64,000 nucleotides of DNA from an uncultured Candidatus Saccharibacteria bacterium. GTDB taxonomy: Bacteria > Patescibacteriota > Minisyncoccia > Phycocordibacterales > UBA5272. A program made the position numbers and the translations under genes. The stretch spans positions 995-64,994 of the forward strand of contig CAYMOA010000002.1 of assembly GCA_964391935.1 (NCBI GenBank). Direction: 5' to 3'. Positions 24,945 through 61,524 of this stretch are shown here, one piece after another; positions within the stretch are counted from its first letter, which is position 1, and every line of letters starts with the position of its first letter. The notes beneath the pieces were generated by a model that did no database searches, was not told the DNA's origin, and saw nothing but the letters and a program-made list of their open reading frames with translations.

Positions 24945-25042
24945 ACATAAAGAAAAATACCTAAGGGTACACTTATCCTTTAGGTCTTGTTCCCAAAGTT
25001 ATTTTCCATTAGCGGAAGATGTGGAACGATGTTCGACAAGCA
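24945..25042. repeat. Degenerate copy (E0) of the attC-like intergenic palindromic element
   Basis: The right arm ttagcggaagatgtggaacgatgttcgacaag resembles the conserved gcggaagRccatatacaaYgttcggca. An upstream imperfect hairpin acctaaggg…ccctttaggt replaces the usual terminator hairpin. Confidence 0.4.
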
Positions 25043-25068
25043 ATTGTCGAGGACATTTAACTATTAAA

Positions 25069-26446
25069 CTATTTCTTTAACCATTTCAGTATCATTTTTG
25101 CTAATAAATTACCTATCTCATTCCAAGCATCACCTAAGCTTGGTTCTAGTTTCTTTGGTTCAATCGTTATATCCTTTTGCAATCTCAATCTATCAAATTC
25201 TTCTGCATATCTATTTCTTTTTTTAAGAGTCAGTAAGTTATAAAGTAAAGCCAAGATAACTAACAACGGCAAAGGAGTTAGAAGTTCATAAACATGATTT
25301 TTATTAAAATCTCCTTCAATTTCAAACTTCATTTTTACACCTCTTTGACCACTAACAAGAGATTTGAACAAATTTTCTTCGGCTTTATGTGTAGAAAAAT
25401 AAGTTAGAACTCTCGGATCGTTTGCATTAAAGTATTTAATCAGTTCAAAAACTTTTTCATAATTTGGTTTACTACTAACTCCGAAAATACTTTCTGAAAT
25501 TTGTCCTAGTTGTCCTACTTCAGCAGTATCTAAAACTCGCTCAAGGGAACTTAATTTAATATTCTCTATTGCTTCCCTTCCAATCCCTGCTTGTTCAAAT
25601 GCTTGCTTTGCAATTTTATATACATCATCAAGTCTTTGTTTTGCCAATTTTTCATTGTCAGGACTTGAATTACCAATACTTTTAGGTCCAGCAAACTTTT
25701 CATCTTCATTAGATGCAAGACCAGTCATTTCAATTCCCTTAACTCTTGTATCATTCAAATCAAAACGAATTTTACCAGTTGCCTCATCAAAATACTTACC
25801 ACTGTTTAATCCGTAGATTTCTAGTGCCTCCCAAGAGCGTTGCATAATAATTTGGTCACTCATTCTTTCTTTCAACAATCTAACCATCTCATCTAAAATA
25901 GTTTTCTCTTGCTCTGGGGTTAGTGATTTTATGTTTGCAAATTTTCTACTAAATTCTGATGGTAATGCCACTTCGATAAACATTTGTCTTTTACATCTTT
26001 CCGATATTGAAAAACCAAGTGGGACTAAAACGGAACCATAGTTAAATGATTTTGTTCCGTCCTCGTTATACTTAAAGAAACGAGCAAAAAACTCTGGTTT
26101 ATGTATTGTTTGGCAAACATCTTCATAAGTATCTTCTACCAACTTTTTCAGTGCTTGATTTTCGTAAATTGCACTTGAAACTCCAGTTAGTGGTCTCTGA
26201 CCGTACATGTGTTCATTGTAATTTTCTTTTACAGGTACAAAGTTTAACCAGGCAGAAAGTAGTGCAGTAGTAATAATCCCAGTTTTAACTCCAGATGGAA
26301 CACCCTTCATCCCTTGTGCTCTGTCATATATCATATCCACATACAAATCTTCACCTTGAATAGTAATAGGTTCTTTTGGTAGCCACTTTCTACCTACTTC
26401 TCTTGTAATACGAACTGGTGGTTTTGGTTCTTTTAGGTTTGCCATA
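25069..26446 (-). CDS. Hypothetical protein (cassette gene)
   Basis: The called ORF starts inside the repeat element. The more likely start is MANLKEPK at 26446 (~459 aa). No motif recognised. Confidence 0.5.
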
Positions 26447-26476
26447 TCATGAAATAGTATATTACAAAAAAACCCT

Positions 26477-26583
26477 TTTGCCGAACCTGGCATTTTGTAT
26501 CATTTCTTAGTAAAGAAAAAATCCTTGTTTTACAAGGATGATTTCGTTAGCGGAAGGCCATATACAACGTTCGGCAGAGTATT
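26477..26583. repeat. attC-like imperfect-palindromic intergenic element E1
   Basis: tttgccgaacctggcattttgtatca…ccttgttttacaagg…gcggaaggccatatacaacgttcggcagagtatt. Terminal inverted repeats TGCCGAAC/GTTCGGCA, internal hairpin plus T-run. Confidence 0.7.
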
Positions 26584-26599
26584 ATTGAAGAATATAAAA

Positions 26600-27139
26600 C
26601 TAAATTGTAACTATGTTCAAGAAATCTGATACGAATTTTTCTAACTCTTTCGTAAAATCTTCTCTCTGCTCGGGCGACATTTTAGCATACGGTTTTAGGT
26701 CGGGTTGCTTTTTCTCCAACTCTAACAATCTATCTTTTACCTCACATTCATTCATTCTCTTTACCGATTTCAAAGCAACTCTAATCCAGTTCAAAAGTGG
26801 TGATAGTTTATTTACCCTATTCTTATCACTTTGATAAAACTCAACAAAAGGTTTTCCATATTTCTTACCCATCTCCATCCTCCACTTTCTGCGAGAAGTA
26901 TGGTCTATACCAAAATTATCAACAATTCTTTTTAATGCTAAAAATCTTTTTGCAACATCTACTGTTTTTTCAAATAACTGAAATTCTGTTACACCCATAA
27001 ATTGAGAAAGACCTAGATTTAATTCTCTATCTTTGTATTGGTTATTACCCTCAATTATTATCAAAGAATTTTCTTGTATAAATTTATCTTCATAGAAAAA
27101 TTCCATTTGTTTTTCGGTAGGATTTATATTCTCTGACAT
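26600..27139 (-). CDS. Hypothetical protein (cassette gene)
   Basis: 179 aa ORF flanked by repeat elements E1 and E2. Confidence 0.5.
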   Translation of the reverse strand: MSENINPTEKQMEFFYEDKFIQENSLIIIEGNNQYKDRELNLGLSQFMGVTEFQLFEKTVDVAKRFLALKRIVDNFGIDHTSRRKWRMEMGKKYGKPFVEFYQSDKNRVNKLSPLLNWIRVALKSVKRMNECEVKDRLLELEKKQPDLKPYAKMSPEQREDFTKELEKFVSDFLNIVTI

Positions 27140-27166
27140 ATATAAAATTATATCAACAAAAACTCA

Positions 27167-27268
27167 TTTTGCCGAACTTAGCATTTTGTATCACCTCTTG
27201 TAAAAGAAAAAACCCTTGATTTACAAGGACTATTTCAGGTACGGAAGGCCATATACAATGTTCGGCAA
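27167..27268. repeat. attC-like imperfect-palindromic intergenic element E2 (102 bp)
   Basis: ttttgccgaacttagcattttgtatcacc…ccttgatttacaagg…ggtacggaaggccatatacaatgttcggcaa. Ends 1 nt before the stop codon of the adjacent gene. Confidence 0.7.
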
Positions 27269-27269
27269 T

Positions 27270-28316
27270 CTATTCTGAAGGAAAATCTTGTACATATTTC
27301 TCATTAACCTTATTAGACATAGCCATCATTATTTCTCTACTAAATTCTCTTGACTCCCCTTTAGACTTCATTTGTTTTCTAAAAGATAAAATGGCCTCTT
27401 TGAAACTTCCATATTTTTCAACTATCAATCTTAGTACACTCCAAGCTAGAGCATTTTGTTGCCTCTCCGTCAGAGCTTTATAATCTTCCTCCATTTCAAG
27501 TGCTGATTCTACAATATAGGCTAACATTGATTCTTCAAAAACTTCGTCTGTGACTGGCTGTTCATATTTTAATAAAAAATTACATTTTTCACTTGGTTTG
27601 TTTAATAAAGCAGTCGCAGCAGAAAAAACTTGGGCCCCCATTGACTTAAAATATTCACTCAATCTACCGTGCAGAACTCCATAAGGTGCACCGATAGTAA
27701 TGGAGGCCTTAGGAGCAAGACTAGCAAAGTATTTATGTTTAGTTAGTTCTTCTGTAAAGTTCTGTGCAACAAAAATATCCCTCTCTCTTTGGGCTTCTAC
27801 AATATCAACACAAGTTTTTTCCCACATATCTAGTAAATACTCATAACTATCACTTCTAAATCTATCAAATAAAATCATTCTCGCCCATCTTTGTCTACTT
27901 AAAGCTTGGTCTACTTTATAAGTCCCAGCTACCTTATCTCTTGCTTCACTACATACAATTAGTGGTTGGTATTCTGGACTTTCTTTTACATACTCTCTTA
28001 AGGCAGTCGCCAAACCTTCAACAAATTCATTTCTAATTCTTGGGAATTTTACATCTTTTCCAAGAACATAATCTTGAATGTCAGATAAATCTTCATCTCT
28101 AGCACGAACAAGTTCTAGTAAAATAATTTCTGGTTTATCTTTAAGAGAAAGTAAATTATTTACCGCGTTTATTCCATCTTGTGTTGTGCCGTGAAGTAAG
28201 CGAAGACTAACAAAGTTAACCGACTCCAAATTACTCATTCCTTTGCTTCTCAAAGATTCCACTAAAGAATTATTTTCTATTTTATTTTCACTTTGTTTTC
28301 TAAATTCAATACTCAT
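27270..28316 (-). CDS. Hypothetical protein (cassette gene)
   Basis: 348 aa ORF, no recognisable motif. Confidence 0.5.
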   Translation of the reverse strand: MSIEFRKQSENKIENNSLVESLRSKGMSNLESVNFVSLRLLHGTTQDGINAVNNLLSLKDKPEIILLELVRARDEDLSDIQDYVLGKDVKFPRIRNEFVEGLATALREYVKESPEYQPLIVCSEARDKVAGTYKVDQALSRQRWARMILFDRFRSDSYEYLLDMWEKTCVDIVEAQRERDIFVAQNFTEELTKHKYFASLAPKASITIGAPYGVLHGRLSEYFKSMGAQVFSAATALLNKPSEKCNFLLKYEQPVTDEVFEESMLAYIVESALEMEEDYKALTERQQNALAWSVLRLIVEKYGSFKEAILSFRKQMKSKGESREFSREIMMAMSNKVNEKYVQDFPSE

Positions 28317-28345
28317 AATAAATAAAGTATATCAGTAAAAATAAC

Positions 28346-28451
28346 TTTGCCGAACTTACGCGTTTGTATCACTTCTTGTAAAAGAAAAAACCCTTAATTT
28401 ATAAGAGTTTTTTCGTTAGCGGAAGACCATATACAATGTTCGGCAAAGTAT
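28346..28451. repeat. attC-like imperfect-palindromic intergenic element E3
   Basis: tttgccgaacttacgcgtttgtatcac…cccttaatttataag…gcggaagaccatatacaatgttcggcaaagtat. Confidence 0.7.
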
Positions 28452-28484
28452 CCAGGAAGAAACCCTATCAACTTAGAAAGAAAA

Positions 28485-29153
28485 TCATCTCATTTTCCGC
28501 CTTTCTGCGTTTTCTTTATTTTCAAACTTTTCTACTATTTGTGGAATTTTGTTTCTATCAGACACAACCACTACTCCAATACTCTCCAATTCACTAATCT
28601 GCTCTTTAGACAACTTCCCAGTAGTATTTACACAAATTTGCACTAAATTTTTAGGAACTCTTCCTTGAACAAAATGACGGAAAGTATCGTCTATGAAAAC
28701 AACCTTATCTGTTCCATTTAAGGCACAAAATTTACGAATATAGTTTTCTTTATCTTCATCTGTATATTCCACTTTTTTAAACAAACTACTTATACCAGCA
28801 GCTTTTACTTTTTTCTCTTGAAATTCCTTGTCGCCATACGTAAGTAAAACCATATTTTCTTCACCATATTTTTCAGCCAATTTACTGGCAAAAGGAAACG
28901 TGAAATTGTGTATACCCGCGAACATTGTATCACTGACAATACTTTCATCAATATCAATTTGATGCTCGTGGGCGACATAATAAATAAATTTTTTAAAGCT
29001 AAATGTTGGACTCAACACCCTATAACCGTCATAATACTCTTTCGTCTTTTCTGGGGAAATTCCATATTCTAAAAATGCAGAATATATCCTTTCTGACTTA
29101 AATCTTGCCGTATCAAAAATTGTGTCGTCAAAGTCAATTAGAATTTTTATCAT
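28485..29153 (-). CDS. HAD-superfamily hydrolase
   Basis: N-terminal ILIDFDDTIFDT (DxDxT motif I), later motif-III-like Lys and Asp. 222 aa. Confidence 0.6.
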   Translation of the reverse strand: MIKILIDFDDTIFDTARFKSERIYSAFLEYGISPEKTKEYYDGYRVLSPTFSFKKFIYYVAHEHQIDIDESIVSDTMFAGIHNFTFPFASKLAEKYGEENMVLLTYGDKEFQEKKVKAAGISSLFKKVEYTDEDKENYIRKFCALNGTDKVVFIDDTFRHFVQGRVPKNLVQICVNTTGKLSKEQISELESIGVVVVSDRNKIPQIVEKFENKENAERRKMR

Positions 29154-30129
29154 AATTTAATATCTTTTGTATTACTCGCCTAAGTTTATCATAATCGTGA
29201 CGGATATAACTCTTATTCGGGTCACCTTTTTGTTTATTAGCTAAATTAGTAGTAAGTAGTTTAGATGTAAAAATTCTCTTGTCTTGTGCCATATCATTTC
29301 TAACCTCCACACCTTCCCCTTCTTTTTCTAAATACTTTGAAAGTTGTTCACTTATAAATTTTTGATTATTGAATACTATAAAATTAATGTTACGTCCAAT
29401 ATATTTTTCTATCTCACTAACATAATTACTCAAAGTCCAATTTAAGGTATGACCTTTTCTATTAGTCAGGTTAGCAATGTAAATTATTTTAGCGCTAGAG
29501 TTTTGTATAGCACTCTTAAAACCATCAACTAATAAATTTGGCAAAATTGAACAGAAATGATCCCCAGGTCCGATAATAATATAGTCTGCATTCACCAATA
29601 CTTCTTTTGCATTTGGATTAATTTTTACCAACTCCTTAATATGAACACTTTTTATTGGATTATTTTCTATTTCATAATCATAAATCTTAAATTCCCCCTC
29701 AATTTTTTGATTATCTGATAGATTAGCCACAAGTGTTGCTTGTTTATCTAAAACAGGGATAACCTCTCCATTAATTTTCAAAATTCTAGATGCGGTTAAA
29801 ATTCCTTTATTAAAATCTCCTGTAATTTTTTCTAATGTTGCAAGTAAAATACTTCCAAAACTAAATCCCTCCAATTTCCCAGTATCAAATCTATATGACA
29901 TTAGTTTTCTGACAACTTCCGTTTCTTCAGAAAGTGCAGTCAAACATTGGCGTACATCGCCAGGTGGTAGCACCCCTAACTCATCCCGTAAAATTCCTGT
30001 GGAACCCCCATTGTCTGTCATACACACAATCGCACTTATAGAAATGTTTTTTATTTTTTTTATCCCAGATAACAAATTATATCCACCAGTTCCCCCACTT
30101 ATTGTAACTATTTTTTTCATAGAATTCAT
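29134..30129 (-). CDS. YvcK/CofD-family (UPF0052, 2-phospho-L-lactate transferase-like) protein
   Basis: IVTISGGTGGYNLLSG…AIVCMTDNGGSTGILRDELGVLPPGDVRQC matches the conserved N-terminal core of the family. Confidence 0.75.
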   Translation of the reverse strand: MNSMKKIVTISGGTGGYNLLSGIKKIKNISISAIVCMTDNGGSTGILRDELGVLPPGDVRQCLTALSEETEVVRKLMSYRFDTGKLEGFSFGSILLATLEKITGDFNKGILTASRILKINGEVIPVLDKQATLVANLSDNQKIEGEFKIYDYEIENNPIKSVHIKELVKINPNAKEVLVNADYIIIGPGDHFCSILPNLLVDGFKSAIQNSSAKIIYIANLTNRKGHTLNWTLSNYVSEIEKYIGRNINFIVFNNQKFISEQLSKYLEKEGEGVEVRNDMAQDKRIFTSKLLTTNLANKQKGDPNKSYIRHDYDKLRRVIQKILNYDKNSN

Positions 30130-30191
30130 TACTATCTTAAGATAATACTTATTACATTATGATAACATAATAATTTCTATTCTAGGCTTAA

Positions 30192-30285
30192 GTGTTTTGT
30201 ATCACCACTTATTAAAGAAAATACCCTTATTAAATAAGGGTATTTTCTTTGGCGGAAGACTATATACAACGTTCGGCAGAGTATT
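30192..30285. repeat. attC-like intergenic element E4 (left arm diverged)
   Basis: …gtgttttgtatcacc…aatacccttattaaataagggtattttctttggcggaagactatatacaacgttcggcagagtatt. Perfect 10-bp hairpin plus T-run. Confidence 0.65.
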
Positions 30286-30296
30286 TTAATGAAAAA

Positions 30297-31001
30297 TTAA
30301 ACTTTATTTTTGAGTACAATTCCTCGCCCAGCATAATACTTTAAGAAGTCCAAAACTAACAATGTGTGCCCAACTTGTGTCTTTGTGCTGCGAAAACCAG
30401 ACGGATTATTTATGGTAATTGTATTTTCTTTTAAATTGTATCCAGTTACAACAACCAAATGTCCGCCTTTTTGATTTAATGGCGCAGTATCGTATCCACG
30501 GATGTTTGGATTTACAGATGCAATTATCAGATTCTCATTGCTAAGCGCATACTGTATTCCTTTAATATTTAACTTTGTGAAAACTTCTGCTTTCAGATTA
30601 TACTTATCGACCCAATTTGCAAACTCTCTATATTTCATATTTGAGATTATTTCTCCTTCAACTTCATATACACCATTCTTCAGTGCATCTTCTGCCAACA
30701 CTACTGGTTTTATTTTTTCGCCTTTATAAAAATCTAAAATCATAGATGTGCAAGCCATACCACACATTGTAAATGCCCATTTTTCATATTCTTCTTTTGA
30801 ACTTGCCCCAGTAACCTCCCAATTTAAATCGTCTATTGTTTTTAACTCTTTTCTTAAAATTGGCTCCGCGTTCTCTGGGATTGAGAATTGGCAAACATAT
30901 GGAACATTATTTTCTACTTTATTTTTAATAGCAGAAAAATTTGACTTAAGTTTATATAAAACATTTTTAGTTTCCTGATTAATCTTATTTAGAACTTTCA
31001 T
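30297..31001 (-). CDS. Papain-like cysteine peptidase, C39-like domain
   Basis: Candidate catalytic Cys in WAFTMCGMACTSMIL and His in QKGGHLVVVTGYN. 234 aa. Confidence 0.5.
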   Translation of the reverse strand: MKVLNKINQETKNVLYKLKSNFSAIKNKVENNVPYVCQFSIPENAEPILRKELKTIDDLNWEVTGASSKEEYEKWAFTMCGMACTSMILDFYKGEKIKPVVLAEDALKNGVYEVEGEIISNMKYREFANWVDKYNLKAEVFTKLNIKGIQYALSNENLIIASVNPNIRGYDTAPLNQKGGHLVVVTGYNLKENTITINNPSGFRSTKTQVGHTLLVLDFLKYYAGRGIVLKNKV

Positions 31002-31042
31002 TTTCTTTATTATATTACAAAATGAGAATTAATTAATTCCAA

Positions 31043-31113
31043 CAAAAAATACCCTTATTAAATAAGGATATTTTTCTTTGCGGAAGACTATATGCAATGT
31101 TCGGCAAAGTATT
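31043..31113. repeat. attC-like intergenic element E5 (right arm plus hairpin only)
   Basis: aaaaatacccttattaaataaggatatttttctttgcggaagactatatgcaatgttcggcaaagtatt. Confidence 0.6.
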
Positions 31114-31133
31114 TTAGATGAAAATATCTAATT

Positions 31134-31562
31134 TTAGTATTTCTTCAACCACTCACCCATCATTTTTATTTCTCCTTCTTGGGCAGAAATAATTTGATTA
31201 GCAAAAGTTTTTAATTCTGGACTAACAGTAGGGTCAGCTAGAAGCTTCTTTGCCATATCTACTGCCCCTTGATGATGAGGTATCATTCCGACTATAAACT
31301 CTTTTTCCAACGCTTTACCTGTTTTACCATCCATCATACCTACCATATCATTCATAGTCATATCCATCATACTTTCACCATTATTCATCATCATAGAACC
31401 ATCTGGCATTTTGTGCATATTGCCCATCATATTTCCACTCATTTTATTTCCACCCATCATATTTCCTTGATTGTGGAAAAAAATTGTATCCCAGTGCCAA
31501 GCATAAGTCACCAATAATATACCAGCCAAAACAATTGTTGTAATTTTATAATCTATTTTCAT
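31134..31562 (-). CDS. DUF305 family protein with Met-rich (MxxM/MMxM) segment, putative copper-binding
   Basis: C-terminal IPHHQGAVDMAKKLL…ISAQEGEIKMMGEWL is the DUF305 ferritin-like core. The preceding ~50 aa contain >15 Met in MMG/MxM repeats. Confidence 0.7.
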   Translation of the reverse strand: MKIDYKITTIVLAGILLVTYAWHWDTIFFHNQGNMMGGNKMSGNMMGNMHKMPDGSMMMNNGESMMDMTMNDMVGMMDGKTGKALEKEFIVGMIPHHQGAVDMAKKLLADPTVSPELKTFANQIISAQEGEIKMMGEWLKKY

Positions 31563-31605
31563 AAGTTTTTTTAATTTGGATGTGATTTAATTATTTTTAT
31601 GTTCC

Positions 31606-32205
31606 TCACATTAAGAGCATAAAAGAAGCCATCGCAAACATAATTCCATTTTCCAGCAAAGTAATATTTGTCATCGGGAAGTTAAATACTGTTCCCAAAC
31701 AAACGCACTGTATTTCTTGTTTGTTTTTAATTGAAATATAGGCACTGTAAATACCTAGTCCTGCAAGTATGAAAGCAACAAAGTTTTGGAGAAAAAACAT
31801 AAATCCTGCAAGATACATTATACCCAACCCTATTTCAATAAAAGGATAAAGATATCCAAATCCTGACCATTTCTTTGTAATAACATCGTAAGTTTGGAAA
31901 CCTTCTGCGAAGCCTGTTAGGTCATAGAGTTTGAACAGTCCAAAAGTAATAAAGAAAATGCCCATAAAGTCCATCATTAGCATCATAAAATCTAGTCCAT
32001 AAACAAACTGTCTAATTAGTGAAAGAAATACAATTCCTGCAAACACATAAAAAAAGGGTAGCAATTTTTGTAAATCACTTCTGTTTTTCTTTTCTACTTT
32101 TAGAGAATGATGTACACAGAAATAATGTATTATATTTTTTAAATCGACTTCACTGTGAGTTGCAAACATACTACAAAGTTCACATTTTTGATTTAAGTTT
32201 TGCAT
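31606..32205 (-). CDS. MauE/DoxX-like polytopic membrane protein with N-terminal Cys/His cluster
   Basis: Start moved to MQNLNQKCELC to remove overlap. CELC…H…CVHH followed by five hydrophobic helices. The MauE/DoxX-like assignment is tentative. Confidence 0.4.
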   Translation of the reverse strand: MQNLNQKCELCSMFATHSEVDLKNIIHYFCVHHSLKVEKKNRSDLQKLLPFFYVFAGIVFLSLIRQFVYGLDFMMLMMDFMGIFFITFGLFKLYDLTGFAEGFQTYDVITKKWSGFGYLYPFIEIGLGIMYLAGFMFFLQNFVAFILAGLGIYSAYISIKNKQEIQCVCLGTVFNFPMTNITLLENGIMFAMASFMLLM

Positions 32206-32209
32206 AATT

Positions 32210-32707
32210 TTAATGCCCGTGTTCGGGTGTATTTTCCCCTTCAAGTGTTGTGTGCAAGTCAAAAGCCAAGTCTTTAATTACAAAGTTTGACAACAAAAGC
32301 AAAACTATAGAAAATACAAAAACAATAATCACATTTTTTGTATTTAATTTTAATTTGTCTTTCCAAAAATAAGTTAAATATGATACAAAAATACCAATGG
32401 AAAGTAAATATCCTGCATAAACTGGATTATCTAAATAGTGTTGTATTCCACCAGAAAGAAAGCCAGTCGCAAATGAAAGTCCTGTAAGAATAAACAGATA
32501 GTTTAAGTCTATTTTTTGACCATTCTGTTTTGCTTCTATTATGTTTCCAACAATCATTAAAACTAAACCAATTACACCTAAAATTATGTATCGTAGAAAA
32601 CCATTTTGCAATGTTCCAATGTGAACAACCGAACCAGCGATTAGCGCAACACCGAGATATTTTATAAGGTAAGTGAAATACTTTTTATTATCGTTTGAAA
32701 TTTGCAT
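32210..32707 (-). CDS. Hypothetical polytopic membrane protein
   Basis: 165 aa with multiple TM helices. Confidence 0.4.
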   Translation of the reverse strand: MQISNDNKKYFTYLIKYLGVALIAGSVVHIGTLQNGFLRYIILGVIGLVLMIVGNIIEAKQNGQKIDLNYLFILTGLSFATGFLSGGIQHYLDNPVYAGYLLSIGIFVSYLTYFWKDKLKLNTKNVIIVFVFSIVLLLLSNFVIKDLAFDLHTTLEGENTPEHGH

Positions 32708-32708
32708 A

Positions 32709-33044
32709 TTATTTTTCTAATTCTTTACCTAATTTATAAAAAAGCACAGCACCCAACCCCCAAGCAAATGGTAGCCAAAGTGGAATAGATAAAAAGTTGG
32801 AGTTGTTCCAAACCTGCACCCTATCTAGTCCAGTCAAACCAACTTCAATAAATAATCCCAAAAGGAAACTTATTGAATATAAATATGCTTCTACACCTCT
32901 ATTATTAGAGATTGAAAACAAAAAACTTGAAAACATCAATACTAGTAGAAGAGGGATATACTCATTGCCATGAAAAAGAACTTCTATTGCAAAAAAAATT
33001 ACAGGTAGGGATAGATATTTAAGAATTATTTTTGTATTTTTCAT
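32709..33044 (-). CDS. Hypothetical small membrane protein
   Basis: 111 aa with three hydrophobic helices. Confidence 0.4.
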   Translation of the reverse strand: MKNTKIILKYLSLPVIFFAIEVLFHGNEYIPLLLVLMFSSFLFSISNNRGVEAYLYSISFLLGLFIEVGLTGLDRVQVWNNSNFLSIPLWLPFAWGLGAVLFYKLGKELEK

Positions 33045-33045
33045 A

Positions 33046-33342
33046 CTATTTTCTTTTAAGTTTATATACCTTAATAATCTCTTTCTGCATTTCTTCCAAT
33101 CTATTTTTGTTTGTTTCTTTATGCAAACAATGTGCCAAATGACTTTCTAACATTTCATCTTCTAGACCAGAAATCGCACTTTTAATTGCAGAAGTTTGTG
33201 TGATGATGTCTATACAATACTTATCATCTAGTATCATCTTTTCAACTCCATTTAACTGCCCGGCAATTCGTTTGAGGCGAGTTAGTATTTTTTTGTTATC
33301 TTTGTTTATACCGTGCATAAAATGAGCCCTTACCTGCAACAC
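33046..33342 (-). CDS. csoR: CsoR/RcnR-family metal-sensing transcriptional repressor
   Basis: 98 aa. LTRLKRIAGQLNGVEKM… with C (YCID) and H-x3-C (HLAHC) in the positions of the CsoR Cys/His/Cys Cu(I) ligand set. Confidence 0.75.
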   Translation of the reverse strand: MLQVRAHFMHGINKDNKKILTRLKRIAGQLNGVEKMILDDKYCIDIITQTSAIKSAISGLEDEMLESHLAHCLHKETNKNRLEEMQKEIIKVYKLKRK

Positions 33343-33463
33343 TTAGTTACACAGTTTGTGCAAGAACAGTTTGAACACTTACAAGTTGGACAAGAACATT
33401 TTGAATTTTTCATATATATTGTGAGTGGGAGTTTTTTATGGATTTCTACCACTAGGATTTTAG

Positions 33464-33484
33464 TATATACCCCCATAGGGTATA
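33464..33484. promoter_or_regulatory. Putative CsoR operator (TATACCC-N5-GGGTATA)
   Basis: 7-bp inverted repeat with a C/G-tract centre, ~120 bp upstream of csoR on the transcribed side. It resembles known CsoR boxes of the form ATACCC…GGGTAT. Confidence 0.5.
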
Positions 33485-33506
33485 TGTCAAGTAATACAAA
33501 AACACC

Positions 33507-33616
33507 TTTTTGCCGAACTTACGCGTTTTGTATCACCTCTTGTAACAAAAAATACCCTTATTAAATAAGGATATTCTGTTTTGCGGAAGACCATATACAA
33601 TGTTCGGCAGAGTATT
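33507..33616. repeat. attC-like imperfect-palindromic intergenic element E6
   Basis: ttttgccgaacttacgcgttttgtatcacc…aatacccttattaaataagg…gcggaagaccatatacaatgttcggcagagtatt. Confidence 0.7.
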
Positions 33617-33657
33617 TTAGAGGAGAAATTGATGTTTTATATAAATTAACTTGCTAA

Positions 33658-34443
33658 TCATATTTCTAAGCCTTTAACTTCTTCACTGTCTACAGAGTAA
33701 TCAAGTGAGAATGGAGTAAGGTCTCTCTCTTCTTTACTATTTGAAAAATAACGAATTGTAACTGCATAGGTATTTATGCAAACACTTTCTCTGAATAATT
33801 TAACCTTTTCGTCAGTTGTATCTGTTTCTAGGACACTTACGTCAATTTGTGGGATTTTTTTTTGAATATCAAAATAACCAGCTTCATTCAAACTAATTGA
33901 AAAGGTTTGATATATTTTCGGCCCTAATTCATATGTTTCAATGTATTTTTGTCGCCAAGCACCTCTCCAATATGATACATTTCCCCCGTTTTGAAATTTA
34001 TCCATTTCTTTAAAAGAATTTATACCTAGTTTAATGTCAGAATAAGGAATTATTGGGTTAAAATTTTTATCTCTTGTTGTGACTGAATATATTATAACTT
34101 TTCCATTAAGGTCTGTCTGAATGGCAACATAAAACAACTTATTTATGAAAATACAGTTCTTAACATTTTCAACTACATTTACAATTACTGGAGCACCTAG
34201 ATTTTCTATAAAAAAACCTATATCTATTCCAGGGCGAAGTTTATTTATTCTCTTTAGCCAGTATTTAGTTTTAAAAAATTTCTTGTAGACATATTCATAG
34301 GAAATACTGATTCCACCCAAACCTCCTAAAATGGTAAATACACCAAGAATTATAGCAAAAAAATAAAATGAATTTAAAAAATAAATTAAAGCTCCTAATT
34401 TGTAGTAGATTTTTATGAATATAAAAATGATAAAATCATACAT
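33658..34443 (-). CDS. Hypothetical membrane-anchored protein
   Basis: 261 aa with N-terminal hydrophobic segments. No motif recognised. Confidence 0.45.
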   Translation of the reverse strand: MYDFIIFIFIKIYYKLGALIYFLNSFYFFAIILGVFTILGGLGGISISYEYVYKKFFKTKYWLKRINKLRPGIDIGFFIENLGAPVIVNVVENVKNCIFINKLFYVAIQTDLNGKVIIYSVTTRDKNFNPIIPYSDIKLGINSFKEMDKFQNGGNVSYWRGAWRQKYIETYELGPKIYQTFSISLNEAGYFDIQKKIPQIDVSVLETDTTDEKVKLFRESVCINTYAVTIRYFSNSKEERDLTPFSLDYSVDSEEVKGLEI

Positions 34444-34902: not shown

Positions 34903-34932
34903 AACTATATTTTATCATTTTTACCTAACAAA

Positions 34933-34946
34933 AGGTATCTGGATAC
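34933..34946. promoter_or_regulatory. Perfect palindrome GGTATCTGGATACC (copy 1), putative operator
   Basis: 14-bp perfect inverted repeat, ~45 bp upstream of the ATG at 34989. Identical copies at 36618 and 38203. Confidence 0.5.
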
Positions 34947-34988
34947 CAAAGTTTTACAACTCCAACAACTTGAGATATATTTAAATAT

Positions 34989-35489: not shown

Positions 35490-36437
35490 TTACTTAGCTT
35501 TGTAAATCATCTCCCCATCAGACTCCACAGTCATAACTTTCCAGTTGTAATCTTCGTAAATTGCATTTGAATTTTCTTCACCAATATATTTAACAGTTAC
35601 ATCAAAATGAGTTTTAATCATAGCACCAAAACTATTTTGACTGTCTACACTTTGACTAACAACAAAGGTTTTACTATCAGTAGTTTTAGTTGATGGGTAA
35701 CCAAAATCTGCTGTGCTAGGAGCTTTCAAAGATTGTTTAATTAAGTTCTTTGAAATTCTCTCAACTGCTGTTTCTTTGCCACTTGCTAGAGGGTCAATTT
35801 TCTTAACAATTACTCCTGTAAATATATTTGAGTCTTTTAGAGCTTTAACATATTTCACTTCATAGTTTGGAGAATTATCTACCAGATTTAGTTGGTTCAA
35901 AATTATGTTTTTATCCTCAATACTATTTAAGTTGCTATGGTCATTTGCTGATGGTAAAAAGAAATCTATCACTGATTTAGATTTTAAATCATATGTCACA
36001 ATCATTTGTAATTTATCTTTTTCAAAAGTCATATCTGGGTTATCTCCATCATATGTATTCCCTTTGGGAATGTATTTAGATTTTGGCTGTCCAAATTTAG
36101 CCACTACATCATCAATACTTTTTCCCAATAAGTCAGAGATATCAAAAATAGCAGGAGTATTAACTTGTTCTTGTTGTCTTTTTTCTAAGTCTGCCACCTG
36201 TTGTCCTTTATCTTTTGCACTTGAGAAATTAGAAACAATTATTGAAAATAATATGAAGCCAATAAAGGTTGAAATTATCCAGTGTCTTCTAAACCAGTTT
36301 CTAATATCAGAATGACAGTGGGGACATTTAGTAGCACCAGCATCTACTTCTTTTTTACAGTAAGGACAAGTATTCAAACGTGTTTTTGTTTCCATATTTA
36401 TTATATTATTTAAATAGCTAGGACTTTTTCTAATCAA
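35490..36437 (-). CDS. Zinc-ribbon membrane-anchored protein (hypothetical)
   Basis: N-terminal CPYCKK…CPHCHS zinc ribbon, one TM helix, then an extracytoplasmic domain. 315 aa. Confidence 0.5.
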   Translation of the reverse strand: MIRKSPSYLNNIINMETKTRLNTCPYCKKEVDAGATKCPHCHSDIRNWFRRHWIISTFIGFILFSIIVSNFSSAKDKGQQVADLEKRQQEQVNTPAIFDISDLLGKSIDDVVAKFGQPKSKYIPKGNTYDGDNPDMTFEKDKLQMIVTYDLKSKSVIDFFLPSANDHSNLNSIEDKNIILNQLNLVDNSPNYEVKYVKALKDSNIFTGVIVKKIDPLASGKETAVERISKNLIKQSLKAPSTADFGYPSTKTTDSKTFVVSQSVDSQNSFGAMIKTHFDVTVKYIGEENSNAIYEDYNWKVMTVESDGEMIYKAK

Positions 36438-36617
36438 AAAGCCCCTAACCAGTTTCTAGTAGTTGTCTACTACATAACCGTTTCCAGTTATGGCACACGT
36501 AATGCAAAAGACCTGATTAGGGGTTCTTTATTCATTACGTGTGACTTGAAACCGTATCTTGTATTCCTACACGACCTTAGGTTTATGGATATATTCTAGC
36601 ATTTTTCTTTCAAAGTT

Positions 36618-36631
36618 GGTATCTGGATACC
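36618..36631. promoter_or_regulatory. Perfect palindrome GGTATCTGGATACC (copy 2) abutting the CD-NTase promoter
   Basis: Lies immediately upstream of -35. Confidence 0.5.
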
Positions 36632-36640
36632 AAAAAATAA

Positions 36641-36675: not shown

Positions 36676-37560
36676 ATGAGTATTTCAGAAGAGCAGATAA
36701 ATAATTGGGCAGAGCCGATTAGTGAGACAGAGGCGGAAAAATGTAGTAACGCAATTAGAATTATCGGGGAAACTATAAAGGAAAAGTTTGGTAATAGTGT
36801 TAAGATAATACACCAAGGTTCACATAAGAACCGAACTAATATCCGAGCAGATAGTGATGTTGATATTGCGGTTATTTATTTAGATGCGTATTTTTCTGAT
36901 ATCCAACACTTGGACAGTGTAAAACAAACGGATTACTGGAATAAACTGATTCCATCTGATTACAATTTTGCTCAGTTTAAGAATGATGTCCACCAAGTAT
37001 TAGTTGATAAATTTGGTTTGTTTGATGCGACAAGAAAAAATAAATGTGTAAGGGTCAATGGAAATTCCTATAGAGTCAATGCAGATGTTGTCCCAGCATT
37101 TGAATCAAAGCGATTCCATAATTCTGGCAATGTGTCACACACTGGAATTGGTTTTATAGCTGATAATACAGGAATACTAAAGCATAGTTTTCCTGAGCAT
37201 CATTATGAAAATGGTGTTAAGAAAAATGAAGAAACAGGGAACGCTTTTAAAGCGGTAGTTAGAATTTTAAAAAATTTGAGAAATGAGATGGAGGAAAAAA
37301 ACATAATTCCAAAGGGTTCCATTTCTTCATTTTTTCTAGAGAACTTAGCTTACAATGTTCCAAACAACTTCTTTCAGAATAAAACATACAAAGAAGATGT
37401 CCTCTCTGTAATGGGAAAAATTTGGGCAGATATGAGGGATGTAAATACTGGAAATAATTACACAGAAATTAGTCATTTGGCTTTCTTATTTGGTGATTCT
37501 AGTAGAACCACAAAACAAGCTGAAGATTTTATATTTAAAGCGTATAATTATTTGAAATAA
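36676..37560 (+). CDS. cGAS/DncV-like nucleotidyltransferase (CD-NTase, SMODS domain)
   Basis: QGSHKNRTNIRADSDVDIAV gives GS-x11-DxD, and a third acidic residue sits in VNADVVPAF. 294 aa. The architecture is typical of SMODS. Confidence 0.7.
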   Translation: MSISEEQINNWAEPISETEAEKCSNAIRIIGETIKEKFGNSVKIIHQGSHKNRTNIRADSDVDIAVIYLDAYFSDIQHLDSVKQTDYWNKLIPSDYNFAQFKNDVHQVLVDKFGLFDATRKNKCVRVNGNSYRVNADVVPAFESKRFHNSGNVSHTGIGFIADNTGILKHSFPEHHYENGVKKNEETGNAFKAVVRILKNLRNEMEEKNIIPKGSISSFFLENLAYNVPNNFFQNKTYKEDVLSVMGKIWADMRDVNTGNNYTEISHLAFLFGDSSRTTKQAEDFIFKAYNYLK

Positions 37561-40029: not shown

Positions 40030-41727
40030 ATGGATAAAATAAAAAGCAAATTTAACACATTATTGATTGATGACTATTACCGAAAGTCATCTAGAGCAGA
40101 AGATAAGCAAGCTTTGTCACTTGATGGACAAGAGGAGGAAGCCAAAAAAGCTAGAGAAATGTATGGGATTCCTAAAGCCCTTAATACATACAAAGAATCC
40201 CGTTCAGCTAAATACGCAGGAAAAAGAGTTCTTTATTCTGAAATGAAAATGAGAATTGTTAAGGGAGAAATAAATTGTATTTTTGCTTGGCACTTAAATC
40301 GTATTGCAAGAAATATGACAGAGGCAGGTGAGCTAATTGATTGGGTAAGTGATGGCAAGCTTATTGTAATAACTTTTTATGACAATCAAATAGAGGTTTA
40401 CGATGAAGATTCTGACACTTCTGTAATGGCACAAAAATTTGGTGCAAATAAACAATACTCTCACACCTTAAGTAAAGATGTTAAAAGAGGTCAAAGAACT
40501 AAAGCAAAACTTAAAGGATTACCCCAAGGTTTAGCAACTATTGGTTATAAAAATTCAAAGCAAGGCGAAAAGGGAGAGCGTTGGTGGTATGTAGATGAAG
40601 AAAGACTTTGGAAGATTAAAAAACTTTTTGAACTTTTTTTAACAGGTAGATATTCAATTGGTAAACTCCATAAATACGCAACAGAAGAACTGAAACTTAC
40701 TACCCCGTCACATAAAACTTTAGGAGGGAAACTGGTTACCAGAGAGTATCTAGGAAAGATTTTACATAATCCAATCTTTGCTGGCTTCTTTTTTGTTCAA
40801 GGTGAAAGATACACCCTTGATAAAAATCTTCCCAGAATAATTACAGTAAGCGAACACAATAAAATCAAACTCATTCTCACAAGTCGTTGTAACCCTAAAG
40901 TCCAAAAACACGAAGCAGTATTTTCGGGATTTATCAAATCTGATACAGGAGATTTTATTGGACAGGATATAAAACGCCAACTTTGGTGTGATTGCCGACA
41001 TAAATTTGCCTATCGTGACAAAAAGAACTGCCCTAAATGTAACAGAAAGATTGATGAGCTAGATAATCCTGAATATTTTATTCAAAATTATTATTACAAT
41101 AATCGCAAAAAGAAAGCAGGACTTGAATATAAATCAATAACAGAGGAAAGGATTACCAATGAGATAATTGAATATGTAGAAGAGAATTTAAAACTTCCCT
41201 TTTCTTTATTGGAATGGACTAAAAAACATATATACGAACTCAAAGACCAAGAAGTTTCTGATAGCCTCAACATAGAAAAAGATAAGGGACTCAGAAAGAC
41301 TGATTATGAAAATAAAAAGAAAAATGCCACAAAGCTATTTATTGAAGGAAAAATAAATGAGGAAGAGAGAAAGCAATTTTTACTTGATGTTGAAAATGAA
41401 TACACTGACTTAAATGAAAACAATACTCCTAAAATAAACTGGGTTGAAAAATTAGAAGAAATTATTGATGTAACAGTTTCAATAAAAAATGTACTGACAA
41501 ATGGTGACTTTGAAGCCAAAAGAGTTCTTTTAACTAGATTAGGTTCGCACTGGACTTGGGACGACAAAAACCTCTTAATTTACAACGCTAAATCAGTAAA
41601 CACTTTCTCAGATGGAATAAAAACCGTAAAACCAATTTTATCAAAGTTCGGCAACAGAAAAGCCCTTGTAGAACAAGAGCTTTCTGACGAAAACAGTGAA
41701 CTTTGTATCACCCTGCGGGCCATGTGA
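40030..41727 (+). CDS. Large serine recombinase (resolvase/invertase N-domain + recombinase domain + zinc ribbon)
   Basis: Catalytic-Ser region YYRKSSRAEDKQ, motif WHLNRIARN (R-x-x-R), C-terminal CDCRH…CPKCNRK zinc ribbon. 565 aa. Confidence 0.8.
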   Translation: MDKIKSKFNTLLIDDYYRKSSRAEDKQALSLDGQEEEAKKAREMYGIPKALNTYKESRSAKYAGKRVLYSEMKMRIVKGEINCIFAWHLNRIARNMTEAGELIDWVSDGKLIVITFYDNQIEVYDEDSDTSVMAQKFGANKQYSHTLSKDVKRGQRTKAKLKGLPQGLATIGYKNSKQGEKGERWWYVDEERLWKIKKLFELFLTGRYSIGKLHKYATEELKLTTPSHKTLGGKLVTREYLGKILHNPIFAGFFFVQGERYTLDKNLPRIITVSEHNKIKLILTSRCNPKVQKHEAVFSGFIKSDTGDFIGQDIKRQLWCDCRHKFAYRDKKNCPKCNRKIDELDNPEYFIQNYYYNNRKKKAGLEYKSITEERITNEIIEYVEENLKLPFSLLEWTKKHIYELKDQEVSDSLNIEKDKGLRKTDYENKKKNATKLFIEGKINEEERKQFLLDVENEYTDLNENNTPKINWVEKLEEIIDVTVSIKNVLTNGDFEAKRVLLTRLGSHWTWDDKNLLIYNAKSVNTFSDGIKTVKPILSKFGNRKALVEQELSDENSELCITLRAM

Positions 41728-53424: not shown

Positions 53425-53510
53425 GACACCTGAGACGCTCCTTGACTTATCTAGGCACTTGCGTCATCAATATAGGTGTATGAAAATACAAACAAATAAA
53501 CAACCAGAGA
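53425..53510. repeat. Direct repeat copy B (~75 bp) spanning the promoter and 5' end of the serine recombinase gene
   Basis: gacacctgagacgctccttgacttatctaggcacttgcgtcatcaatataggtgtatgaaaata… matches copy A at 48851. Confidence 0.6.
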
Positions 53511-54781
53511 TAGAGGAAAAATTGAGGTATTGCCTTTACTGTAGAAAAAGTAGTGAATCAGAAGAACGCCAAGTAATGAGTATAGACTCTCAAATTAAGG
53601 AAATGCTCAATTTGGCAGAGCGAGAAAAACTAGAAATAGTAAATATCAAAAGAGAGGCTCATAGTGCAAAAGAAACAGGGCAAAGACCCGTCTATAACGA
53701 AATGATCAAGGATTTAAAAGAAGGAAAATTCAATGCAATTCTTACTTGGGCACCTGACAGAATATCTAGAAACGCAGGAGACTTGGGTATGGTTGTAGAC
53801 TTAATGGATCAAAAGGTTTTAAAAGAAATTAGAACTCACTCACAAACATTTACTAATAACCCAAATGAAAAATTCTTGCTGATGATTTTAGGATCACAAG
53901 CAAAATTAGAAAACGATAACAGAGGAATAAATGTTAAGCGTGGGCAAAGAACAAAAGTTGAGCTTGGCTTTTGGCCTGGACTCGGACCTCTTGGATATTT
54001 AAATCAAAGATCCATGGACAAAAAAGGAGTGCTCATAGTAGACCCAGATAGAGCCCCTATTGTGAAGAAAATATTTGAGAAAGTTGCTTATGAATACCAG
54101 TCAGGAAGGAAAATTTATAACTGGCTACGAGAAGTGAATTTTTATACCAGAGGTAACAAACCACTAACCTTAGGTGGAGTTTATAGAATTTTAGACAACA
54201 CCTTTTATCATGGAGTATTTGAATATCCAAAAAGATCAGGTAATTATTTTACTGGAAAACATGAACCATTAATCAGCAAAGAGTTATGGGATAAGGCTCA
54301 GGAATTTTTAAAAAGAGACAAGATTGTACGATCGAATAAAGAATTTACTTTTACCAAATTAATTGTTTGCGGTTATTGTGGAAGTGGAATTTCTGCTGAG
54401 GAAAAATACAAAAACTTAAAAAATGGAACACAAGCTAGATATATATACTACGGCTGTGGCAGGAGTAAAGATAGGAATTGCAAAAATAAATATATTCAAG
54501 AGGTTGAACTTATAGAAGAACTAATAAAAATAGTTGATAAGGTCAATGTTGACGAGATAGGACTAAAGGTAAAAATGGAAGAAGAAATTAAAAGATTTAA
54601 TATTTTTCAGAGGTCAATACTAAATACAAAAGAAAAGTTTGAATTGCCGAAGGCAACTGTAGTAAAGAATTATCTAAAATATATTTTGAAAGAGGGAAGC
54701 AAAACTGAAAAAAGAGAGGTCTTGGGAAATCTAAGAAGTAGAATCAGTTACAAGGATAAAGAATTAACTTTAGTAAGTTAA
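53480..54781 (+). CDS. Large serine recombinase
   Basis: Start moved to the ATG (MKIQTNKQ…). Catalytic-Ser region YCRKSSESEERQ, WAPDRISRN, Cys cluster CGYCGSG…CGRSKDRNC. Confidence 0.8.
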   Translation: MKIQTNKQPEIEEKLRYCLYCRKSSESEERQVMSIDSQIKEMLNLAEREKLEIVNIKREAHSAKETGQRPVYNEMIKDLKEGKFNAILTWAPDRISRNAGDLGMVVDLMDQKVLKEIRTHSQTFTNNPNEKFLLMILGSQAKLENDNRGINVKRGQRTKVELGFWPGLGPLGYLNQRSMDKKGVLIVDPDRAPIVKKIFEKVAYEYQSGRKIYNWLREVNFYTRGNKPLTLGGVYRILDNTFYHGVFEYPKRSGNYFTGKHEPLISKELWDKAQEFLKRDKIVRSNKEFTFTKLIVCGYCGSGISAEEKYKNLKNGTQARYIYYGCGRSKDRNCKNKYIQEVELIEELIKIVDKVNVDEIGLKVKMEEEIKRFNIFQRSILNTKEKFELPKATVVKNYLKYILKEGSKTEKREVLGNLRSRISYKDKELTLVS

Positions 54782-61436: not shown

Positions 61437-61524
61437 TGGCGGAAGCTGTGAGATTCGAACTCACGGAGAGTTGCCCCTCGCTTGTTTTCAAGACAAGTAC
61501 CTTAAACCACTCGGTCAAGCTTCC
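61437..61524 (-). tRNA. tRNA-Ser (anticodon TGA), CCA encoded
   Basis: Manual fold. Acceptor GGAAGCT/AGCTTCC with discriminator G and CCA. Anticodon stem CTTGT/ACAAG with loop CTTGAAA. Long variable arm GCGAGGGGCAACTCTCC. T-arm GTGAGTTCGAATCTCAC. Confidence 0.75.

Follow-up and report, generated by a model that had tools for sequence, protein, structure and literature searches.

A predicted copper-sensing and copper-defence operon of Patescibacteria with a metallothionein-like first gene

We describe a compact string of six genes on the minus strand of a 64-kb stretch of the genome of an uncultured, ultra-small Candidatus Saccharibacteria bacterium (contig CAYMOA010000002.1 of GenBank assembly GCA_964391935.1; the whole stretch is called the window), and propose that it is an autoregulated copper-detoxification operon, derepressed by Cu(I) and carried on a mobile module of Patescibacteria. 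We put the probability of this reading at about 0.8. The string, as defined by a listing of open reading frames (ORFs) and by reading of the minus-strand letters, runs from 33413 down to 31134 (31134-33490 with its promoter) and encodes, in transcript order, a Cys-rich peptide, the repressor CsoR, membrane proteins of 111 and 165 residues, a MauE-type membrane protein and a DUF305 protein (Table 1). By its inferred function the locus is a copper-sensing and copper-defence operon of the Patescibacteria, or Candidate Phyla Radiation (CPR), in which the repressor and the outer copper-binding protein are familiar; the membrane proteins and the Cys-rich peptide are uncharacterised or unannotated. 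Gene content, family membership, ligand residues, the identity and conservation of the operator, the conservation of the operon and the domain fusions reported below are all observations made in silico. Every element listed by an initial annotation of this DNA was found in place, and the searches with profile hidden Markov models that it had proposed matched CsoR (PF02583), DUF305 (PF03713) and MauE (PF07291), with DoxX below threshold. Its count of five genes headed by csoR has to be changed: a further ORF of 27 residues with nine Cys had been overlooked, and this metallothionein-like peptide, lying between the operator and csoR, is the first gene.

Table 1. Features of the copper operon and of the associated repeats in the 64-kb window.
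Feature	Coordinates	Strand	Description
Sigma-70-type promoter	33462-33490	-	TTGACA (33490-33485), 17-nt spacer, TATACT (33467-33462)
Predicted CsoR operator	33465-33485	-	ATATACCC-TATGG-GGGTATAT; 21-bp site overlapping both promoter hexamers
Cys-rich peptide, metallothionein-like	33330-33413	-	MKNSKCSCPTCKCSNCSCTNCVTKCCR, 27 aa, 9 Cys; first gene
csoR	33046-33318	-	90 aa; PF02583; Cys35, His59, Cys63
111-aa membrane protein	32709-33044	-	motifs IEVG...RxQxW...PxWLPxxWG; small uncharacterised family
165-aa membrane protein	32210-32707	-	five helices; invariant His29, Gln89-His90-Tyr91-x-Asp93; His-rich C-terminal tail
MauE-type membrane protein	31606-32205	-	199 aa; PF07291; N-terminal Cys/His cluster; invariant CxC
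DUF305/CopM-like protein	31134-31562	-	142 aa; N-terminal membrane anchor, Met-rich linker, half-size CopM helical domain
Upstream repeat, full length	33496-33627	-	nhmmer E 1.7e-38; 3' end of preceding gene unit
Downstream (3') repeat	31038-31123	-	nhmmer E 2e-19, model positions 3-88/132; right arm missing
Other full repeat copies	26464-26593, 27156-27285, 28334-28462, 30165-30295	-	nhmmer
Weak repeat copy	24987-25054	-	nhmmer

The repressor matched the CsoR profile with an E-value of 4.9e-26 and 91.4 bits against a gathering cutoff of 22.8 (ORF 33046-33342), and its best matches among solved structures are the copper-sensing CsoRs of Geobacillus (4m1p, E 2.7e-16) and Streptomyces lividans (4adz, E 1.5e-14), followed by a third CsoR (7mq1, E 3.1e-12); these CsoRs outrank FrmR and InrS. 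Cys35, His59 and Cys63 fall on the Cu(I) ligand positions of 4m1p and 4adz, which bears out the Cys...His-x3-Cys ligand set from which the initial annotation had assigned the protein to the CsoR family, and the ligand positions whose loss on alignment with CsoR/RcnR would have spoken against that assignment are thus all in place. The Tyr before the ligand Cys is conserved (the YC feature), the RLXR motif is present as RLKR at residues 14-17 and the conserved Gln lies within IITQTSA. The RLXR motif and the Gln are operator-binding criteria of CsoR, RcnR having RASK instead (PMC3902906). Among the NCBIfam models the best for the repressor is RicR, at 68.5 bits far under its cutoff of 175, and those of FrmR and RcnR also give sub-threshold similarity. 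Mechanical ORF calling lengthens csoR to 98 aa (GTG start, 33046-33342) and the MauE gene to 218 aa (TTG start, 31606-32262, with an overlap of 53 nt with the upstream gene), and the public MauE protein record (P0001) has the 218-aa form. Relatives favour 90 aa for CsoR and 199 aa for MauE, and the true starts are likely to be the ATG codons at 33318, as called in relatives, and at 32205.

The promoter of the operon matches 11 of 12 consensus positions and is the top promoter-like site within 30900-33800. Its 17-nt spacer, between TTGACA and TATACT, is occupied by the operator, whose core is the palindrome ATACCCCCATAGGGTAT (33467-33483), matched a single time in the 64 kb; the expectation from shuffled sequence is 0.02 matches with one mismatch tolerated. 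The experimentally mapped CsoR consensus of streptomycetes is ATATACCCCTNAGGGGTATAT, with TAC-X9-GTA as the general rule (PMC3902906). Measured against this streptomycete consensus, the site agrees at 16/16 arm positions, and it obeys the general rule as TAC-CCTATGGGG-GTA within the promoter spacer. The likeness to CsoR boxes claimed for this palindrome is therefore well founded. As to position, the initial annotation was right that the palindrome is there, and to call it merely upstream falls short, since it fills the promoter spacer. We then compared related loci (numbered with L), which were reached via MauE homologues and whose ORFs were surveyed by phmmer. The pattern ATACC-N7-GGTAT stands upstream of csoR, or of the Cys-rich peptide and csoR, in 22 of 35 distinct loci and, where found, always between the -35 and -10 boxes, at about 30 nt from csoR or at 165-254 nt where the peptide intervenes; the arrangement of -35 box, operator and -10 box is repeated in L003, L088, L090 and L091. 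The initial annotation had named lack of conservation in orthologous loci as what would undo its palindrome, and this degree of retention answers that concern. Taken together, these features make the site a predicted textbook CsoR operator, and regulation of the operon by CsoR is well supported in silico.

The first gene behind this operator encodes a peptide with the pattern CxCxxCxCxxCxCxxCxxxCC, in which 9 of 27 residues are Cys and Phe, Tyr and Trp do not occur. It thus shows the features of the metallothionein class, namely small size, about 30% Cys in CxC/CxxC spacing and no aromatics. Orthologues of 25-28 codons are found in eight loci from different CPR classes; the ORF lies directly 5' of csoR in L002, L017, L019, L021 and L058, and the Gracilibacteria loci L055 and L062 (code 25) also carry the peptide ORF and then csoR. 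In an alignment of the five copies that are 27 codons long, the ATG and TAA codons coincide and nine columns are Cys throughout; 8/9 of these columns show synonymous TGT/TGC changes, and the residues in between vary freely. Selection appears to be purifying at the Cys positions and nowhere else, as expected of a Cys scaffold that is translated. In every locus where csoR directly follows the peptide gene, the operator is upstream of that gene, and we therefore take the peptide to be the first gene of the CsoR-controlled transcript. In the window its stop codon is separated from the csoR start by 11 nt, which leaves no room for an attenuator. An extended form of 48 aa was rejected as the product because its ATG is within the operator, ahead of the -10 box, and hence off the transcript. 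The peptide is predicted to form a metal-thiolate cluster and would play the role of a metallothionein. It resembles the small fungal copper metallothioneins, of which that of Neurospora crassa has 25 aa and 7 Cys, in size, in CxC/CxxC spacing, in the absence of aromatics and in being about one third Cys; no sequence-family relationship with them was detected, and the window peptide differs in being bacterial and the first gene of a CsoR operon. The mycobacterial metallothionein MymT is longer (53 residues against 27); the peptide was compared with the Pfam and NCBIfam families, without a match, and not with MymT itself.

At the other end of the transcript, the DUF305 protein matched PF03713 with an E-value of 1.2e-16 and 61.6 bits against a cutoff of 27, over profile positions 62-151 of 151, which is half a domain. 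It aligns to each half of Synechocystis CopM (PDB 5ffa, E 1.7e-19), and its PHHQ motif, MIPHHQGAVDMA, aligns to both CopM repeats. Residues 34-78 hold 17 Met in 45 positions (38%), in agreement with the Met-rich character ascribed to this protein earlier. An exact-sequence look-up of the protein returned no record. CopM is described as a copper-binding protein with a part in copper resistance (PMC4335983). Relative to CopM of Synechocystis sp. PCC 6803 (copMRS), the PHHQ motif and the Met-rich region are common to both proteins, whereas the window protein is half-size with one repeat, so that it probably needs to dimerise, and it appears to be membrane-anchored. The control also differs, the window gene being under CsoR and copMRS under the CopRS two-component system.

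Of the membrane proteins, that of the MauE type matched PF07291 with an E-value of 2.3e-11 and 44.5 bits against a gathering cutoff of 27; its DoxX match is weak. The CxxC...H...CxHH cluster that had been noticed in one of the membrane proteins is real and forms the MauE N-terminus; alignment of homologues shows this cluster, C8xxC11...H17...H27..C30xH32H33, to be conserved in most close relatives, the CxC (C167, C169) to be invariant and several of the Met and acidic residues of the helices to be invariant or nearly so. The AlphaFold2 model (pLDDT 78) combines five transmembrane helices with a small domain built of a beta-hairpin, and the loop that carries the CxC is disordered. More distant members carry other metal-related domains in the N-terminal position, either HMA (P0056-58, L059, L064), YHS (L075) or HMBD (P0059); in L053 (5995-8034) a complete multicopper oxidase is fused at the C-terminus, and in L032 (3600-7311) the gene order is csoR, P1B-ATPase, MauE. 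These fusions and the L032 order link the MauE clade to copper. Proteins of about 430 aa in L020, L027 and L039 have a His-rich C-terminal domain of about six helices that matched no Pfam family, and L057 (3504-4763) combines MauE with a His-containing C-terminal domain that, judged by sequence alone, is a beta-sandwich. Since external domains are fused at the C-terminus we infer an N-in, C-out topology, with which the CxC and the Cys/His domain would both face the cytoplasm. The window clade differs from the MauE of methylamine-utilisation clusters in its metal-binding N-terminal domains, in its multicopper-oxidase or other C-terminal domains and in its linkage to csoR in about 40 loci. No mau genes were found nearby in the window or in these loci, where the neighbours are csoR, DUF305 and metal-related genes.

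The 165-aa protein gave sub-threshold Pfam matches only and belongs to a large family without a Pfam domain; its AlphaFold2 model has a pLDDT of 87. Several members of this family carry DUF305 fused at the C-terminus, a fusion that links the family to copper. The 111-aa protein matched no Pfam or NCBIfam family, and its family has 55 representatives among 1.84 billion proteins. Within the modules its gene is confined to the window and its two closest relatives, L090 and L091, where it takes the same position in the operon. The best homologue, a single case, is flanked on one side by a P1B-type ATPase C-terminus and on the other by an HMA protein.

The core of the operon is widely conserved. 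csoR adjoins MauE in 39 loci, most of which have DUF305 too and many the 165-aa gene, and the order csoR-(165 aa)-MauE-DUF305 recurs in about 40 related loci. By record title these are nearly all Patescibacteria, with Paceibacterota, Parcubacteria, Saccharibacteria, Nomurabacteria and Gracilibacteria among them; the best match among representative genomes is 69% identical, and the window's own species is not represented there. A P-type ATPase with the DKTGT motif lies within 6 kb in only 1 of the 39 module loci. Neither a P-type ATPase nor a resistance-nodulation-division (RND) pump, alone or paired with a membrane fusion protein (MFP), was found among the window ORFs scanned, in keeping with the remark of the initial annotation that the operon has no obvious P1B-ATPase or CusCBA. 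In L002 (9146-16570) the csoR-MauE-DUF305 core is part of a longer module that may be phage-borne: it is joined by small ORFs of 120 and 48 aa, by genes of an MFP and an RND pump and by one DsbB and two DsbA-like genes, and terminase-like and methylase genes adjoin it.

From this gene content the following mechanism can be proposed. At low copper, CsoR would sit on the G-tract pseudopalindrome in the promoter spacer and block RNA polymerase, and binding of Cu(I) at Cys35'/His59/Cys63 would free the repressor from the DNA. The 27-residue, 9-Cys peptide would be made first and, like a metallothionein, would keep Cu(I) in the cytosol buffered in a thiolate cluster; CsoR itself and the three membrane proteins would come next on the transcript. 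The MauE-type protein may capture Cu(I) on its cytoplasmic Cys/His domain and pass the ion to the CxC on the same face, from which it might cross or enter the membrane along the conserved Met and acidic residues. The 165-aa protein, with its invariant His and external His-rich tail, may partner or anchor the DUF305 protein, which as a membrane-anchored, Met-rich, half-size CopM-like protein would sequester copper outside the membrane, and the 111-aa protein would be an accessory. The metal specificity, the topology in the membrane and any movement of copper by MauE, the 165-aa protein or both are in this scheme inferences, and the roles given to the membrane proteins are read from gene linkage and fusions. 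That the MauE clade and the 165-aa family form a copper apparatus of Patescibacteria which takes the place of a P1B-ATPase in exporting Cu(I) or handing it off, together with a family of metallothioneins of 25-28 residues, is a tentative suggestion to which we give less than an even chance.

Several results weigh against the copper operon as proposed, or against parts of it. An exact operator match is missing in 13 of the 35 related loci. The DUF305 protein missed the NCBIfam CopM cutoff (66.6 bits against 90), which is why we file it as CopM-like and not as CopM. The N-terminal Cys/His cluster of MauE itself has no YHS or HMA match in Pfam, and the models of MauE and the 165-aa protein found no match in the PDB with an E-value below 0.5 (best 0.59 and 1.2). 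In most accounts, relatives of MauE and DoxX serve redox or maturation functions and are not transporters, and, the view being 64 kb of genome, a CopA may be encoded elsewhere. The peptide matched no family, metallothioneins included, in Pfam (E limit 10) or NCBIfam (E limit 1), has no obvious Shine-Dalgarno sequence before it and is absent from L090 and L091, so that it must be dispensable. A search of a protein collection with the 48-aa ORF as query also found no relative, which may be because the 84-nt gene is under the 90-nt minimum gene length of Prodigal; a degenerate DNA pattern of the peptide run against metagenome contigs returned, among the matches listed, only low-complexity Cys-rich sequence and does not inform its distribution. 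The missing Shine-Dalgarno sequence, family and database relatives and the absence from L090 and L091 could mean that the ORF is non-functional as a protein, arising by chance or being part of an untranslated 5' leader with a regulatory role. We consider this improbable, given the ATG-to-stop frame kept in eight loci of different CPR classes, the invariance of Cys positions whose codons vary synonymously among otherwise free residues, the fixed position between operator and csoR and the lack of attenuator space in the 11 nt before csoR. It is even harder to believe that the repressor senses nickel or cobalt like RcnR and InrS, persulfide like CstR or formaldehyde like FrmR, with the operon serving that stress. 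For such a signal speak the sub-threshold NCBIfam likeness to FrmR and RcnR beside RicR and a Met-His start that recalls the N-terminal His ligand of RcnR. However, the Cys-His-Cys set is exactly that of solved Cu(I) CsoRs, the operator is of CsoR type, the motif is RLXR rather than RASK and every effector is linked to copper (CopM, HMA, YHS, multicopper oxidase). A Ni/Co sensor of RcnR/InrS type deduced from the N-terminal Met-His-Gly was rejected because His-Gly is shared at the aligned position by S. lividans CsoR and the Z ligand is Cys.

A more serious alternative concerns the membrane proteins. MauE and the 165-aa protein might form a membrane thiol/redox or maturation system that transports no copper, repairing copper-damaged envelope proteins or loading and anchoring DUF305 in the way of MauE-MauD, DsbB-DsbA or Scs, with the exporter encoded elsewhere; this is possible, and we would still bet against it. 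MauE works with the thioredoxin-like MauD in the disulfide-dependent maturation of methylamine dehydrogenase, and such a maturation partnership, the family assignment to MauE/DoxX, an invariant CxC that could be redox-active, the DsbA-like, DsbB and RND genes that follow in the L002 module and the failure of either model to reveal a transporter fold would all fit; the multicopper-oxidase and DUF305 fusions could be mere membrane anchoring. Against it, the window operon has no thioredoxin-fold partner, the domains carried N-terminally (HMA, YHS, HMBD) are typical of proteins that translocate metals, many Met are conserved in the MauE helices and 38 of the 39 modules have no P-type ATPase nearby.

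The operon also travels as a unit. In blastn the window is 85% identical to L090 and L091 over a stretch that opens at the csoR ATG (33319) and closes where the truncated repeat ends (31041), and the flanks are unrelated. L090 has the module after a tRNA-Ser and a 19-nt duplicate of the tRNA 3' end, L088 after a tRNA-Tyr, and in L003-L007 it abuts a large serine recombinase near a tRNA-Gln. The duplicate in L090 (4182-4500, and likewise in L091), cgaatccctcaggttccgc, lies about 190 nt past the tRNA-Ser, for which ARAGORN gives the unusual anticodon ACT, and right before the copper-operon promoter; it looks like the scar of an att site. In the window the operon stands within an array of repeats (24987-33627) of seven copies of about 130 nt, five full, one truncated and one weak, with none elsewhere in the 64 kb. 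Each lies just 3' of a same-strand gene unit, at a spacing of 0.7-2.5 kb. Full copies fold (z-scores -2.4 to -4.7) as a long imperfect hairpin, TGCCGAAC...GTTCGGCA, round a variable inner terminator that shows compensatory changes between copies, and the outer arms GCCGAAC/GTTCGGC are each one base off RYYYAAC/GTTRRRY, with an internal geometry atypical of attC. Only a few bases separate the right arm of the upstream copy from the -35 box of the operon. The downstream copy consists of a GCCGAAC...CTTCCGC box, the terminator hairpin (~31045-31075) and a T-run, and ends after the hairpin; L090 and L091 also have the repeat 3' of the DUF305 stop codon. A terminator scanner found none in the region, because the hairpins are AT-rich; hairpin and T-run are nonetheless visible in the folds. 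Outside the window the repeat core was seen only in L090 and L091; neither the other 86 loci nor a metagenome scan showed it. An origin of the repeat as a decayed att site from a tRNA 3' end was discarded, as CTTCCGC, all that is shared with the 3' end of the window tRNA-Ser, is too weak a likeness.

The initial annotation had taken the operon for one mobile cassette of this array, bracketed by repeats. Movement as a unit fits the homology just described, and the upstream bracket is a full-length copy; the downstream one is truncated, and the classical array cassette does not fit, with an own promoter, no integrase found, a truncated 3' repeat and breakpoints off the outer arms. In its strict form the idea is that the repeats are attC sites, the 25-34 kb array a cluster of attC sites lacking an integron integrase (CALIN) and the copper unit an integron-type cassette inserted by IntI in trans. 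The similarities with CALIN are those of hairpin repeats 3' of same-strand units at cassette-like spacing, long imperfect hairpins with attC-like arms and a variable centre, and the recurrence of one element 3' of the same operon in the different context of L090 and L091. We still judge it unlikely. Among the window ORFs scanned no tyrosine recombinase or IntI was found and there are two large serine recombinases instead; the unit has six genes behind its own 11/12 promoter and is no promoterless single gene; its 3' element has no right arm, and the homology with L090 runs from the csoR ATG to the element interior and not to the outer arms or a G/TT. The spacing between inner and outer stem, 1 nt against 9 nt, is not attC-like either, the core is missing at the other 86 loci and in the metagenome scan, and at other loci the neighbours of the module include tRNA genes, a large serine recombinase and a second copy of a tRNA 3' end. 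The copper module moves as a unit and seems not to be a classical integron cassette.

Known CsoR systems provide the closest comparison. With CsoR-copZA of Bacillus subtilis, Geobacillus and Streptomyces lividans the window operon has in common the repressor family, the Cys-His-Cys site, the RLXR/Gln features, the operator type ATATACCC-N5-GGGTATAT with TAC-X9-GTA and an equal logic of autoregulation. The controlled genes differ: the window has no CopZ chaperone or CopA P1B-ATPase among them but a Cys-rich peptide, three uncharacterised membrane proteins and a CopM-like protein. In Mycobacterium tuberculosis, RicR is a repressor of the CsoR family whose targets are a small metallothionein for copper, membrane proteins and an oxidase, and not an ATPase (PMC3944814). 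The genes of that regulon (mymT, lpqS, mmcO, Rv2963, socAB) are scattered, whereas those of the window form one operon.

Beyond the operon, a mobile or defence island (34989-61524) adjoins a tRNA-Ser(TGA) gene (61437-61524). It holds large serine recombinases (40030-41727 and 53459-54781), a reverse transcriptase (56859-57851), a weak, sub-threshold SMODS-like match (36676-37560), three N6/N4 methylases, a ResIII helicase, an AAA_5 ATPase and an M78 peptidase; the recombinase at 53459-54781 is about 67% identical in nucleotides to that abutting the L003 copper module. The Rfam LOOT RNA motif (RF03000) occurs at 36458-36583 on the minus strand (61.7 bits against a gathering cutoff of 46.4), directly 5' of the gene of a 315-aa zinc-ribbon protein (35490-36437). 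A 45-nt direct repeat of 78% identity (34906-34950 and 36590-36634), ending in the palindrome GGTATCTGGATACC, lies upstream of two minus-strand units, a deaminase operon and the LOOT/zinc-ribbon gene, and may be a shared operator.

CsoR regulation and CopM-type proteins are already known, as is the control of a metallothionein by a CsoR-family repressor (RicR-MymT, PMC3944814). The novelty lies in which effectors are encoded, in their confinement to Patescibacteria, in the connection to copper that domain fusions give two uncharacterised membrane families and in an unannotated family of Cys-rich peptides. The copper homeostasis of CPR/Patescibacteria is essentially undescribed; in full-text literature MauE, copper and CsoR were not found together, and Patescibacteria with CsoR in only two papers. 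The operon offers candidates that can be tested, namely a MauE clade repeatedly fused to HMA, YHS, HMBD and multicopper oxidase, a large family fused to CopM domains and the Cys scaffold of the 27-residue peptide, which is conserved between loci. A new class of transporter would be at hand if copper is moved by the membrane proteins. If the peptide binds Cu(I) it would add a family to the bacterial metallothioneins and show that small proteins are overlooked by annotation pipelines; at 25-28 residues these would be the smallest metallothioneins known, encoded by genes of 78-87 nt that are probably too short for standard gene callers.

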